Positions 14,851 through 16,843 of a stretch of DNA of 64,000 nt are shown piece after piece (position 1 is the first letter of the stretch; the number at the start of each line of letters is the position of its first letter). Both the position numbers and the translations under genes were made by a program. The notes under the pieces were generated by a model. That model saw only the letters and a list, made by a program, of their open reading frames with translations. It was not told where the DNA came from and ran no database searches. Origin of the DNA: Escherichia phage 212; the sequence record PQ765507. The stretch is one strand, 5' to 3'.

Positions 14851-15201
14851 ATGAACGATAGATACAATCACACGTTTACTACACCACGTGGAGCATCTTA
14901 TGCCGCGCCTGGTCCATACAATGAAATTCCGGGTCATCATCCTGTTGCGTATGTCCCACCGAGTCCTCCGGTGTACATCCCACCTGCTAAACCGTATGAC
15001 GACGCAATTTATCTGGTCGCTTTCTTAAGTGAAGCTGGTACACAAGACCGTGGCTGTCAACGTTCTGGTTTGCTTACTGAACTGGAAGCACATAAACGCG
15101 CCAGAGAATGGATTGAGACAAATCCAAAGGGTGAAGCTATTGTAATGAAAGCCAAAAACTTCTATACAGCTGAAGTAACCTATAAAACAATTATCAAATG
15201 A
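14851..15201 (+). CDS. hypothetical protein with Pro-rich N-terminus
   Basis: 116 aa; RBS AGGAAA; terminator downstream. Confidence 0.5.
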   Translation: MNDRYNHTFTTPRGASYAAPGPYNEIPGHHPVAYVPPSPPVYIPPAKPYDDAIYLVAFLSEAGTQDRGCQRSGLLTELEAHKRAREWIETNPKGEAIVMKAKNFYTAEVTYKTIIK

Positions 15202-15226
15202 CTCCTTCGGGAGTCTTTTTTTTTTC
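15200..15226 (+). terminator. intrinsic terminator
   Basis: GACTCC-TTCG-GGAGTC hairpin followed by a T10 run. Confidence 0.7.
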
Positions 15227-15234
15227 CATAAAAG

Positions 15235-15264
15235 GTGTACAACAGGATTTGCCCAGTGCATAAT
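15235..15264 (+). promoter_or_regulatory. early promoter (copy of a repeated module)
   Basis: GTGTAC at 15235-15240 and CATAAT at 15259-15264; the 24 bp CATAATGATTCCATACTGAGTTAC is identical to 40360-40383. Confidence 0.5.
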
Positions 15265-15305
15265 GATTCCATACTGAGTTACACAATAAAACACTGGAGA
15301 ATAAA

Positions 15306-15674
15306 ATGAAAATCAATCTTAACTCATACATCAAAGGTAAAGACCACGACGGTTACAAAGCCATTGAAACTAAAGAGATGCAATGGCACTTGTATAAAGA
15401 ACAGTTTGAATTTGTTGGTTGCATGACTCCTGAAGGTCCTTCTGATGACTTCTCCTGGAAAATTATGGTAACAAACTTTTTTACTGGTGATACCTACGAA
15501 CTGAAAACTTTGATTCTGGGTAAGATTCGTTGTAAGACCTATGAAGATGAAGAAACTGGTTATTCTGAAGATGTTACATGGTATCAAAATGGTCGCACTA
15601 CTGCTGATGATTTGATTGAAAAAATGAAAGCTAAGGGTGAATTAAATTTAGATAATTGGATTAAAGTCGCATAA
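15306..15674 (+). CDS. hypothetical early protein
   Basis: 122 aa; early promoter and RBS GGAGA upstream. Confidence 0.55.
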   Translation: MKINLNSYIKGKDHDGYKAIETKEMQWHLYKEQFEFVGCMTPEGPSDDFSWKIMVTNFFTGDTYELKTLILGKIRCKTYEDEETGYSEDVTWYQNGRTTADDLIEKMKAKGELNLDNWIKVA

Positions 15675-15678
15675 AACA

Positions 15679-15718
15679 GTTTACTTTGGTACAGGTTATG
15701 ATATTATAGACCTGTACC
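15679..15718 (+). promoter_or_regulatory. early promoter within a stem-loop (PeSL-like module)
   Basis: GTTTAC at 15679-15684 and TATTAT at 15702-15707; 8-bp inverted repeat GGTACAGG / CCTGTACC at 15688-15695 and 15711-15718. Confidence 0.5.
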
Positions 15719-15745
15719 AACAAATGAAAACAACTGGAGAATAAA

Positions 15746-16111
15746 ATGAACTACATCAACTTTGAACGCAAATATGTTTCTAACTGCATCCCAGGTTCTT
15801 CTGAAGTTATTTGCTTGTGGAAACATAAAAATGGTTCAGTGTGCGAAATTGAACAGTATATGACTCCTAACTACGTTTATATGCGATTTGAAAATGGTAT
15901 CACCCTTTCAATCACTATGACTGGTTCAACCTTTAAAATTGCTTTAGATGATGATTTCCGTGAACGTGATTTAGGGACTCATCCTTGCTGGAATGGTGTT
16001 AATCGCAAGCTGTTGGTTAAAACTTGGATTCGTCACATCCTGAGCAACAAAGCAAAACCTGAACACCTGGAAGCAATCTTTGATGTAGTTCTTAATGAAT
16101 TTGATATCTAA
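15746..16111 (+). CDS. hypothetical early protein
   Basis: 121 aa; promoter-stem-loop module and RBS GGAGA upstream. Confidence 0.55.
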   Translation: MNYINFERKYVSNCIPGSSEVICLWKHKNGSVCEIEQYMTPNYVYMRFENGITLSITMTGSTFKIALDDDFRERDLGTHPCWNGVNRKLLVKTWIRHILSNKAKPEHLEAIFDVVLNEFDI

Positions 16112-16147
16112 TCTTAAATGGGGCGAAAGCCCCTTGAGGAAAATACT

Positions 16148-16435
16148 ATGTTTATGACTACCTACTTTGATACACGCAAAAATTTCTGTGAAGTTGTTTT
16201 CTCTAAAAAAGGCCCTAATGTTCCTGCTGGGCGTGAACCAACACGCGATTCCATTAAGAACTATGTTGATGTAGTTTGCCCAGTTGAATTCAGGACTGTT
16301 AATGGACGTGATACTCTGGCAATCACCAAGCTTAGACGCGACATTGATATTGACCCAATTGCGGCGCGGGAAATTAATTCATCTGATATTAATGGCGGTA
16401 ATGTTAAATCACGCGGTTTTCAGATGAGGTTCTAA
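16148..16435 (+). CDS. hypothetical protein
   Basis: ATG with RBS GAGGA; the track start at 16118 lies inside a GAAA-tetraloop hairpin. Confidence 0.5.
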   Translation: MFMTTYFDTRKNFCEVVFSKKGPNVPAGREPTRDSIKNYVDVVCPVEFRTVNGRDTLAITKLRRDIDIDPIAAREINSSDINGGNVKSRGFQMRF

Positions 16436-16629
16436 TGCAACTATTCTTATCGCAAACTGTTCAGTTAAAAGGTGTGGGTATTCCTGGAATGATTTCTAAG
16501 GTTTTGCCTGCTTTTAAATTCGGTGGTATTGTAATTAAAGAAGCGTATCTAGTCTTGTGGGTTGATGGAACTGAAGACGTTCGCATGAGCGGTGAACTGT
16601 CTGTAATCAAATGTTTAAGGCGAGGATAA
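16435..16629 (+). CDS. hypothetical protein
   Basis: 64 aa, TAATG coupling, RBS GAGG. Confidence 0.4.
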   Translation: MQLFLSQTVQLKGVGIPGMISKVLPAFKFGGIVIKEAYLVLWVDGTEDVRMSGELSVIKCLRRG

Positions 16630-16630
16630 T

Positions 16631-16843
16631 ATGTTTAATAAACTGATTCAGAAAATTTTGGGAACAGAAATGGTTGAAGTGACTTATCGTGTTATTGATT
16701 TATCACCGCCATATGCTTGCGATGAAGATGCTATTAAAACTGTTGTTATGCGAAAAACATATCGCGGGCGGTCAATTAAAGAAAGATTGCCAGACCATGG
16801 CATGTGGTATGCAACCAAGATTATCAGTGTCAAAGATGTCTGA
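16631..16843 (+). CDS. hypothetical protein
   Basis: 70 aa, RBS GAGGA. Confidence 0.45.
   Translation: MFNKLIQKILGTEMVEVTYRVIDLSPPYACDEDAIKTVVMRKTYRGRSIKERLPDHGMWYATKIISVKDV

Follow-up and report, generated by a model that had tools for sequence, protein, structure and literature searches.

The window, a stretch of 64,000 nucleotides from Escherichia phage 212 (PQ765507), carries between rIII and DNA ligase a block of small genes that all run in one direction, from rIII toward the ligase gene (Table 1). Six ORFs lie on the plus strand inside 14851-16843, where an earlier sequence-only reading had counted seven, and the basic frame of 53 residues that it placed just upstream is present. 30.4 is followed on its 3' side by 30.3, 30.2, 30.1 and then ligase. 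The 398-bp spacer between rIII and 30.9 (14250-14646) holds one ToxI-like unit and a structured RNA. tRNAs were not found within the window.

Table 1. Genes and sequence features between rIII and the end of 30.3, with positions in the window and the evidence for each.
Feature	Position	Strand	Evidence
ToxI-like (pseudo-ToxI) unit, single	14255..14287	+	plasmid BLAST, pairing covariation, unit model
Structured RNA, 149 nt, seven helices, GNRA hairpin, P3-P4 kissing loop	14379..14527	+	RNAalifold, pair counts, covariance model (CM)
30.9 orthologue, 53 aa, very basic	14647..14808	+	70% T4 gp30.9; phrog_1427 3e-26
Terminator-like hairpin GGGGACTCTTCGGAGTCCC then T-run, left copy at 30.6A cassette	14813..14838 (hairpin 14813-14832)	+	terminator scan, alignment
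30.6A, 116 aa	14851..15201	+	98% SP18 gp30.6A
Second terminator-like hairpin GACTCCTTCGGGAGTC then T10, right boundary of 30.6A cassette	15200..15225 (hairpin 15200-15215)	+	terminator scan, alignment
Promoter-like site upstream of 30.8: TGTACA, 17 nt, CATAAT	15236..15264	+	consensus match only
30.8 orthologue, 122 aa	15306..15674	+	PF06019, 40% T4 gp30.8
Promoter in stem-loop, PeSL-like: TTTACT, 16 nt, TATTAT in 11-bp stem TTGGTACAGGT/ACCTGTACCAA	15680..15720	+	promoter scan; stem read from sequence
30.7 orthologue, 121 aa, most conserved member of the block	15746..16111	+	PF06919, 90% T4 gp30.7
30.6 orthologue, 95 aa	16148..16435	+	80% T4 gp30.6 full length; phrog_2153 1e-46
30.5 orthologue, 64 aa	16435..16629	+	68% T4 gp30.5 over 63 aa; PHROG 8e-28
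30.4 orthologue, 70 aa, overlaps 30.3 start	16631..16843	+	30% T4 gp30.4, E 1e-9; phrog_2042 4e-27
30.3 (AdfN), NADAR ADP-ribosylglycohydrolase, 152 aa, full length	16836..17294	+	PF08010 214 bits; 85% T4 gp30.3

The ORF cluster is already known: its members figure among the catalogued accessory genes of the T4 family, and the annotations of Shigella phage SP18 and of VR7 list gp30.9, 30.6A, 30.8, 30.7, 30.6, 30.5, 30.4 and 30.3, matching the order in the window. Over 14200-17300 the DNA is 94.8% identical to that of SP18, and the encoded proteins share 92-100% of their residues with their SP18 counterparts, 30.4 excepted. T4 30.9 to 30.4 (NP_049823 to NP_049818) are arranged as in the window, in the same order and orientation, with rIII on the upstream side and 30.3, 30.2, 30.1 and ligase on the downstream side, and are of similar length. 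In contrast to T4, the window has the additional gene 30.6A between 30.9 and 30.8, a 30.8 that is 12 residues longer, a strongly divergent allele of 30.4 and a rIII-30.9 spacer of 398 rather than 245 bp. The gene order in SP18, VR7 and T4 bears out the earlier placement of the interval in the T4 30.1-30.9 region, from rIII to ligase. The accompanying statement that none of the ORFs matches a T4 protein does not hold, as BLASTP identifies five of the six, and the 53-residue frame, as T4 orthologues. The best match of each ORF with a T4 counterpart is the positional counterpart, and the same search gave 66% identity for 30.2 and 45% for 30.1 downstream. For 30.9, 30.6, 30.5 and 30.4 these E-values range from 2e-18 to 1e-9 against a small database; each of the four combines a full-length best match to its positional T4 counterpart with the conserved gene order, 30.4 being the weakest case.

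Two further members belong to Pfam families that bear T4 gene names. 30.8 scores 148.2 bits against Phage_30_8 (PF06019, cutoff 25), with residues 2-121 aligned to positions 3-123 of the 124 in the profile, and 30.7 reaches 175.5 bits against Phage_T4_Gp30_7 (PF06919, cutoff 27), with residues 1-120 covering the whole profile (1-118 of 118). Every ORF matches a PHROG family (E 1e-25 to 1e-64), and pN/pS relative to SP18 is 0-0.3, with 0.64 for 30.4; because of these two results the ORFs are regarded as real genes. Relative to T4, pN/pS is 0.13-0.24, and all ORFs are under purifying selection. An NCBIfam search with all ten proteins returned no matches, and a PDB sequence search with 30.7, 30.6, 30.8 and 30.6A gave nothing below E 0.39.

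A Shine-Dalgarno-type motif can be read 5' of each ORF, in agreement with the earlier description of good ribosome-binding sites. It is AAGAG for 30.9, AGGAAA for 30.6A, GGAG for 30.8 (15296-15299) and 30.7 (15736-15739), and GAGG for 30.6, 30.5 and 30.4 alike. The GGAG initiation regions are of the type of T4 30.7, the Shine-Dalgarno sequence of which is cleaved by RegB (PMC9409239), and they uphold the assignment of 30.8 and 30.7 to the early genes. Each of the two has an early-type promoter-like site together with the kind of GGAG that the RegB nuclease cuts for early-gene shut-off; RegB control and early timing are what we infer for the phage studied here. At the position homologous to the promoter-like site of 30.8, both VR7 and T4 read GTTTACA. 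The hexamers upstream of 30.7 span 15680-15707 and overlap a stem-loop at 15686-15720. In PeSLs, the promoter-stem-loop composites of T4-type phages (PMC2839356, PMC4122927), early-promoter hexamers overlap a stem-loop that is located between ORFs in a hyperplastic region, and 15680-15720 conforms to this layout. As in the window, PeSL cassettes combine stem-loops and early-promoter-like hexamers between small ORFs with one-ORF indels flanked by repeated hairpins; unlike PeSLs, the hairpins at the borders of 30.6A are terminators without an embedded promoter. The idea that the genes have promoters and terminators of their own stands in part: terminators follow 30.9 and 30.6A and promoter-like hexamers precede 30.8 and 30.7, whereas neither kind of signal lies between 30.6, 30.5 and 30.4. 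When compared with shuffled sequences, the terminator scan showed a modest enrichment (7 found, 3.2 expected) and the promoter scan none (9 found, 12.6 expected).

The genes 30.6, 30.5, 30.4, 30.3, 30.2 and 30.1 abut or overlap one another in a chain that leads into ligase. Such contacts were read from the sequence for 30.6/30.5 (TAATG), 30.5/30.4 (TAA, one base, ATG), 30.4/30.3 (an overlap, ATGTCTGA) and 30.3/30.2, and the translational coupling that had been proposed for the cluster holds for the first three. The true start of 30.6 is the ATG at 16148, served by the GAGG at 16136-16139 and yielding a protein of 95 residues, the length found in T4 and SP18. Another ATG, at 16118, from which a protein of 105 residues would result, was rejected; it lies where the stem of a GGGGC-GAAA-GCCCC hairpin (16120-16133) begins. 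30.4 is a hypervariable, rare and highly divergent allele: it differs from the SP18 gene at 77 of 213 nucleotides, and an identity of 90% or more was found in only 5 of 463 phage records.

For two members of the chain a function is established in T4. 30.5 binds E. coli polyphosphate kinase (Ppk) and triggers bNACHT11 (bioRxiv 10.1101/2024.12.17.629029); Ppk binding may not carry over to the 30.5 studied here, which shares only 68% of its sequence with the T4 protein. 30.3 is AdfN, which reverses DNA ADP-ribosylation by DarT1 and counters DarTG1 (PMC11825919). T4 AdfN gives no rescue from DarT1 toxicity in uninfected cells, and a T-even factor has been proposed to account for this (PMC11825919). 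Obvious candidates for this factor are the genes coupled to 30.3. At least one of 30.4, 30.5, 30.6 or the downstream 30.2 could be the missing component for full anti-DarTG1 activity, and the coupling of 30.6, 30.5, 30.4 and 30.3, the overlap of 30.4 with the start of 30.3 and the standing of 30.4 as the fastest-evolving member, as expected for a gene in conflict, all fit such a role. We nevertheless consider it unlikely: the arguments for it are purely positional, T4 30.5 already has another partner in Ppk, and the strong divergence of 30.4 next to a conserved AdfN (85%) speaks against a tight complex.

At the other end of the block, 30.9 is identical to SP18 gp30.9 at the DNA level, and the gene that follows it, 30.6A, is the only one of the six ORFs without a T4 counterpart; VR7 also lacks it. 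According to the alignment, the indel is flanked by two copies of a hairpin of which T4 and VR7 have one each, and the right-hand copy corresponds to the hairpin after 30.9 in T4. 30.6A is an independently terminated cassette, probably inserted by recombination at the terminator hairpin of 30.9, which is now present in duplicate, one copy on either side. Its initiation region is of the 30.6 type (AGGAAAATATTATG vs AGGAAAATACTATG), and in Mosigvirus JS09 a 30.6A of 204 residues sits in the 30.6 slot. The protein consists of a disordered Pro/Tyr-rich N-terminus (45 residues, predicted) and a conserved C-terminal domain of ~55 residues that is common to the gp30.6A proteins of TuIa, SP18 and JS09 (phrog_17531) and also occurs in a CkP1 protein of 152 residues. 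Residues 41-106 match positions 124-189 of the 204 in phrog_17531 (E 2e-25), which covers the C-terminal domain; nothing aligns with the first 120 positions of the profile, and the full 204-residue architecture is lacking. The domain is 76% identical to residues 130-184 of the JS09 protein and 47% identical to the CkP1 protein. In JS09 the gene in the 30.6 slot encodes a folded-looking N-terminal half, whereas the gene between 30.9 and 30.8 in the window encodes a disordered N-terminus; in the alignment with JS09 the N-terminal part is replaced by a Pro-rich segment.

The 30.6A family is very small and restricted to T4-like phages. A profile search against 1.84e9 representative proteins recovered only 5 clusters, the full-length form occurs in only ~5 phage records, and the homologue searches yielded 3-5 proteins, too few for a deep alignment. 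Structure prediction and fold search, which had been recommended for each ORF, were run for 30.7 and 30.6A and were uninformative on function: the AF2 model of 30.7 (pLDDT 86) has seven strands and two C-terminal helices, and that of 30.6A has a pLDDT of 58 overall and of 65-89 for residues 51-100, with Foldseek matches to the PDB only at E > 0.6 for this low-confidence model.

The scarcity of the 30.6A family, its absence from T4 and VR7 and the rarity of the 30.4 allele are the observations that speak for the view put forward in the sequence-only reading, namely that the cluster consists of lineage-specific, previously unseen anti-defence genes. Lineage specificity applies to 30.6A and the divergent 30.4 allele only, the other ORFs being T4 orthologues that are annotated in SP18 and VR7. 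For the cluster as a whole that view is quite improbable and is already refuted for 30.9, 30.8, 30.7, 30.6 and 30.5, given the clear T4 orthologues, the annotation of all genes in SP18 and the two Pfam families named after T4 genes. It had been stated beforehand that clear homology to functionally characterised T4 30.x proteins would speak against it; the homology was found, and the function part applies to 30.5 only. That the ORFs are open by chance, or are pseudogenes decaying in a spacer that is not essential, would agree with their shortness, with the lack of an assigned function for most of them and with the dispensability of the region in T4, yet it can be dismissed, because they are conserved across genera with family profiles, have pN/pS values far below 1, possess proper ribosome-binding sites and coupled starts, and in the case of 30.7 adopt a confidently predicted fold.

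To the observed gene identity, synteny, coding constraint, signal anatomy and cassette boundaries we add a reading of the products: 14647-16843 is very probably the syntenic orthologue of T4 30.9, 30.8, 30.7, 30.6, 30.5 and 30.4 plus an accessory 30.6A cassette, residing in an SP18-like (Gaprivervirus) T4-type phage and encoding early accessory proteins of host binding or counter-defence. Each of these small early proteins would most likely bind a specific host protein or defence component and in this way tune takeover or counter-defence. Precedents for this mode are T4 30.5, the Ppk ligand sensed by bNACHT11, and the coupled 30.3 with its reversal of DarT1 action; both lend direct support to the anti-defence and host-interaction theme of the earlier reading (10.1101/2024.12.17.629029; PMC11825919). 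For 30.9, 30.6A, 30.8, 30.7, 30.6 and 30.4 such a role is what we infer, and literature searches with gp30.x names and accession numbers, which returned mostly noise, found no functional evidence for these six in any phage. With two members recently given such roles, the block is a sensible place to seek host-interaction factors. A useful outcome is a corrected annotation with six ORFs, a 30.6 start at 16148, a 30.6A cassette bounded by hairpins, a hypervariable 30.4 and a full-length AdfN.

The spacer upstream of 30.9 is more unusual than the ORFs and deserves follow-up. The 149-nt RNA shows compensatory changes in 25 of 44 pairs with 99% of cells paired (RNAalifold and pair counts), a result reached by none of 500 shuffles. 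Every sequence can form the P3-P4 kissing loop, which reads GAUG/CAUC. The case for the structure is made from covariation only, since the single-sequence MFE of the spacer RNA is no better than that of shuffles (z = -0.35 and -0.17). The covariance model matches exclusively T4-like phages and always 3' of rIII; four or more of the named T4-like genera have the RNA at this locus, as do Klebsiella-phage lineages. Rfam 15 has no match to 14379-14527 at E values up to 10 and none at the gathering score in the whole window, and the RNA is unrelated to T4 rnaC and rnaD. A pattern scan with GCTAACGGTGNGCAACAG hit bacterial genomes 35 times and also many non-phage metagenome contigs; the genome count is about that expected by chance for 17 fixed bases in 596 Gb, and none of the hits fits the covariance model. 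Mimicry of a tRNA-Lys anticodon loop by the P7 loop (CUUUAAG) was rejected, as the segment is not conserved.

The ToxI-like unit begins five bases past the rIII stop codon, and an AAAAU comes directly after it. Rfam ToxI (RF02519) scores it at 16.6 bits (E 2), where the gathering score is 50. BLAST against plasmids led to ToxI arrays: of nine plasmid records matched, the seven from enterobacteria are all multi-copy. In two arrays that were fetched, ToxI lies directly upstream of annotated ToxN/AbiQ toxins, and the phage unit resembles the repeats of ~36 nt; it agrees with unit 3 of E. coli pU90-1 at ~32 of 35 positions. The reciprocal search with E. coli ToxI as the query retrieves the unit in the window as well as the annotated pseudo-ToxI of Pectobacterium phage phiTE. 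Taken over the phage and plasmid units together, the pseudoknot stems are paired in 95.5% of cells, with compensatory changes in four of seven pairs, compared with 27-56% paired in slid controls. A unit model (R2) finds the copy with E 7e-7 and no others in the window, so that a tandem array is not present here. The rest of the spacer has no BLAST match in plasmids, and when the whole spacer was compared with E. coli genomes, the ToxI unit was the one part to find a match.

The spacer may be an RNA-based counter-defence locus composed of a putative ToxI mimic and an undescribed covarying RNA, a possibility that we hold to be somewhat short of an even chance. A ToxI mimic would blunt abortive infection of the ToxN type. 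If this is confirmed, the spacer would matter more than the ORFs. A ToxI-homologous unit is fixed at a single locus across many T4-like phages, with the strongly covarying RNA beside it. ToxI-like units occur at this locus in at least four T4-like genera, a set that overlaps partially with that of the 149-nt RNA. Although it carries a diverged ToxI-like unit, T4 is restricted by plasmid-borne toxIN (PMC9391042), and no paper linking ToxI mimicry to T4-like phages was found. Experiments have shown an RNA that mimics a type III antitoxin in one phage, phiTE (PMC3475682). As a precedent for the spacer, though not for the ORFs, the pseudo-ToxI of phiTE comes closest: both are short intergenic ToxI-like sequences in lytic myoviruses, and neither has a toxN close by. 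The 1.5 units of phiTE became protective only after expansion to 4.5-5.5 units (PMC3475682); there is a single unit in the window, and two in tandem at the same locus in Serratia phage 92A1.

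The flagged cluster at 14851-16843 consists of known T4-family genes. Positions 14200-17300 share 94.8% identity with Shigella phage SP18 (genus Gaprivervirus, Tevenvirinae), and a nucleotide search with this region matched 962 T4-like phage records. The order on the plus strand is dCMP deaminase (cd), 31.2, 31.1, gp31, rIII, a 398-bp gap, the flagged ORFs, 30.3, 30.2, 30.1 and DNA ligase; T4 has the identical gene order on its minus strand. The sequence-only reading had counted seven ORFs without a recognizable T4 match. Six are found in the interval (116, 122, 121, 105 or 95, 64 and 70 aa), and in BLASTP against the T4 proteins each ORF with a positional counterpart in T4 pairs with it. 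The fourth ORF (30.6) starts at ATG 16148, preceded by GAGG, and its 95 aa match the length in T4 and SP18; the alternative ATG 16118 forms part of the base of a GGGGC-GAAA-GCCCC hairpin. A start codon choice also concerns the rIII ORF (13860-14249, plus strand), which has 129 open codons from ATG 13860, T4-type rIII comprising 82-84 aa; the homologous start is ATG 13995, and the long form is annotated in SP18, the short one in VR7.

Features in and around the flagged interval, with amino acid identity to the T4 counterpart
Feature	Coordinates	Strand	Identity to T4	Remarks
ToxI-like (type III antitoxin RNA) unit	14255-14287	+		single; begins five bases past rIII stop codon
149-nt RNA	14379-14527	+		seven covarying helices, GNRA hairpin, covarying kissing loop
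30.9 (53-aa basic ORF)	14647-14808	+	70%	
Terminator-like hairpin + T-run	14813-14832			3' of 30.9
30.6A	14851-15201			only non-T4 gene among flagged ORFs
Terminator-like hairpin + T-run	15200-15215			3' of 30.6A
Promoter-like hexamers	15236-15264			5' of 30.8
30.8			40%	
Promoter-like hexamers	15680-15707			5' of 30.7; within 11-bp stem-loop 15686-15720
30.7			90%	
30.6			80%	
30.5			68%	
30.4	16631-16843	+	30%	E 1e-9
30.3	16836-17294	+	85%	152 aa; full-length AdfN homologue, NADAR anti-DarTG1 enzyme
30.2	17291-18139	+	66%	
30.1			45%	

Pfam matches far above the cutoffs (PF06019 for 30.8, PF06919 for 30.7 and PF08010 for 30.3) lead to families that bear T4 gene names, PHROG places each ORF in a family labelled 'unknown function', and the T4 names are already used for these genes in the SP18 and VR7 annotations. 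The pN/pS ratio against SP18 is 0-0.3 for all but 30.4 (0.64); with T4 as reference, 30.7, 30.6 and 30.3 have values of 0.13-0.24. Family matches, prior annotation and low pN/pS together therefore establish the ORFs as real, constrained and previously catalogued genes, and the sequence-only reading that none has a T4 match is incorrect. For them the outcome is a set of annotation corrections and two protein leads, the 30.6A cassette and the hypervariable 30.4 beside adfN; the part that might surprise a specialist is the adjacent spacer, beyond the flagged coordinates.

The good ribosome-binding sites that had been proposed are borne out for all ORFs. Translational coupling holds for 30.6/30.5, 30.5/30.4 and 30.4/30.3, whose stop and start codons overlap or abut. 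Candidate terminators are present after 30.9 and 30.6A and candidate promoters before 30.8 and 30.7; between 30.6, 30.5 and 30.4 the signal scan detected no promoter- or terminator-like signal. Since promoter-like sites are not enriched (9 observed vs 12.6 in shuffles), they count solely alongside conservation in VR7 and T4. A 23-nt initiation region including GGAG is duplicated (15288-15310 for 30.8, 15728-15750 for 30.7), and the GGAG Shine-Dalgarno sequence of T4 30.7 is a known site of the phage nuclease RegB (PMC9409239).

30.6A is lacking in T4 and VR7, and in the alignment the gene is flanked exactly by two copies of a hairpin that is single there. Its initiation region resembles that of 30.6 (AGGAAAATATTATG vs AGGAAAATACTATG), the two having AGGAAAATAYTATG in common (14840-14853 and 16137-16150). 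The '30.6A' of Mosigvirus JS09 differs in comprising 204 aa and occupying the 30.6 slot, and its similarity to the protein studied here is confined to the C-terminal ~55 aa (76% identity). The same C-terminal domain recurs in a Karamvirus protein encoded after 30.9. Such an arrangement is consistent with the shuffling of cassettes at motifs that combine hairpin and promoter, as known from T4-type hyperplastic regions (PMC2839356, PMC4122927). Full-length 30.6A occurs in about five phage records, and its profile retrieved five clusters from 1.84 billion representative proteins. In the AlphaFold model the Pro/Tyr-rich N-terminus is disordered and the folded part is a small strand-helix-strand domain (pLDDT 65-89); a Foldseek search with the model gave no match. 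The C-terminal third of gp30.2 is likewise a Pro/Tyr-rich, in this case Pro/Tyr/Gln-rich, low-complexity tail with the direct repeat NPAYPYQYNPAYPYQY, and the 30.6A N-terminus gives weak BLAST matches to the tail of T4 30.2.

Within the wider block, published functions were found for 30.5 and 30.3. E. coli polyphosphate kinase co-purifies with T4 30.5, which is also one of three T4 proteins activating the NLR-like sensor bNACHT11 (bioRxiv 10.1101/2024.12.17.629029). T4 30.3 is AdfN, a NADAR enzyme that takes DarT1 ADP-ribosylation off DNA and, according to the authors, needs a further T-even factor for full activity; the AdfN allele of RB69, a DarTG1-sensitive phage, is truncated (PMC11825919), whereas 30.3 of phage 212 is full length. 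PDB sequence searches with 30.6A, 30.8, 30.7 and 30.6 and NCBIfam searches with the block proteins returned nothing. The favoured reading is that the block encodes early accessory proteins, each binding a host factor or defence component, a role documented for 30.5 and 30.3 and inferred for the other members. In 30.4, 77 of 213 nt differ from SP18, its neighbours differing by 0-33 nt; the allele is rare (at least 90% identity in only 5 of 463 phage records) and its stop codon is overlapped by the adfN start. 30.4 is a candidate for a conflict-driven gene or a partner of AdfN.

The 398-bp spacer between rIII and 30.9 is conserved as well as the adjoining genes (12 of 397 positions differ from SP18), and the signal scan revealed neither a terminator nor a sigma-70 promoter match in it. 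In a sensitive scan against Rfam, ToxI scored weakly at 14251-14284 (16.6 bits, E 2). When 14250-14300 was compared with 72,556 plasmids by BLAST, 9 records matched, 7 of them enterobacterial with multi-copy matches; in the two that were fetched, P. atrosepticum pPA21A (13 units) and E. coli pU90-1 (4 units), the matches are tandem ToxI arrays immediately 5' of annotated ToxN/AbiQ toxins. Plasmids of Lelliottia and Hafnia likewise match, at 7-10 sites. Used in turn as query, the E. coli array recovered the annotated phiTE pseudo-ToxI and ~90 more phage records. These are almost all T4-like, and those that were checked have the match at the same locus, which in Serratia phage 92A1 holds two tandem units with a 36-nt period (L163, 700-775). 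Pseudoknot stems of 12 phage and 4 plasmid units are 95.5% paired, with compensatory changes in 4 of 7 pairs. A model built on the unit detects one copy and no more across the 64-kb window (E 7e-7); in IMG/VR it recovers copies at 19 of 42 rIII loci, without exception just 3' of rIII on the sense strand. Judged by sequence, the unit is homologous to the plasmid ToxI arrays of E. coli and Pectobacterium and is conserved after rIII in many T4-like phages; within the searchable literature, no paper linking pseudo-ToxI to T4-like phages was found. A putative anti-ToxIN function may be considered, but the window has only one unit, with no AAAU motif 5' of it, and in phiTE 1.5 units had to expand to 4.5-5.5 (PMC3475682). 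Moreover, T4 has a diverged unit, yet it is restricted by plasmid-borne toxIN and escapes via tifA instead (PMC9391042).

Several lineages carry the 149-nt RNA with the ToxI-like unit fused immediately 5' of it. This RNA is missing from T4, VR7 and JS09 and follows rIII in Gaprivervirus, some Tequatrovirus, Karamvirus, Klebsiella-phage and Roskildevirus genomes; identity is 94-96% in Klebsiella and Raoultella phages and ~80% in Enterobacter PG7 and Erwinia Cronus, the position in all of these always being between rIII and 30.9. RNAalifold on a MAFFT alignment of 16 distinct copies yielded seven helices with compensatory changes in 14 of 44 pairs. In 24 distinct copies, aligned by fitting to the model and hence biased towards the structure, 99% of cells pair and double changes affect 25 of the 44 pairs, matched by 0 of 500 shuffles; slid controls are 24-41% paired. 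The MAFFT alignment of the 16 copies, made independently of the model, supports this structure too. The P3 (GAUG) and P4 (CAUC) loops can pair, a pairing kept in all sequences with an A-U or U-A switch in four, and GNRA loops form on the plus strand only. The single-sequence folding energy is unremarkable, and Rfam holds no match. Matches to the model are confined to T4-like phage contigs; pattern matches in bacterial genomes are due to chance, and T4 rnaC and rnaD are unrelated.

The rest of the spacer (14290-14375 and 14528-14646, plus strand) is ~92% identical to T4 and includes other conserved hairpins, such as UAAUGAUU-UGCG-AAUCAUUA and CCCUUCGAGGG, some with compensatory changes in other genera. 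A hairpin module AUGAUG...GGUUAUCC...CGUUAAA at 14530-14575 recurs, with compensatory changes seen by eye, and the order of spacer modules differs in Klebsiella, Erwinia and Serratia phages.
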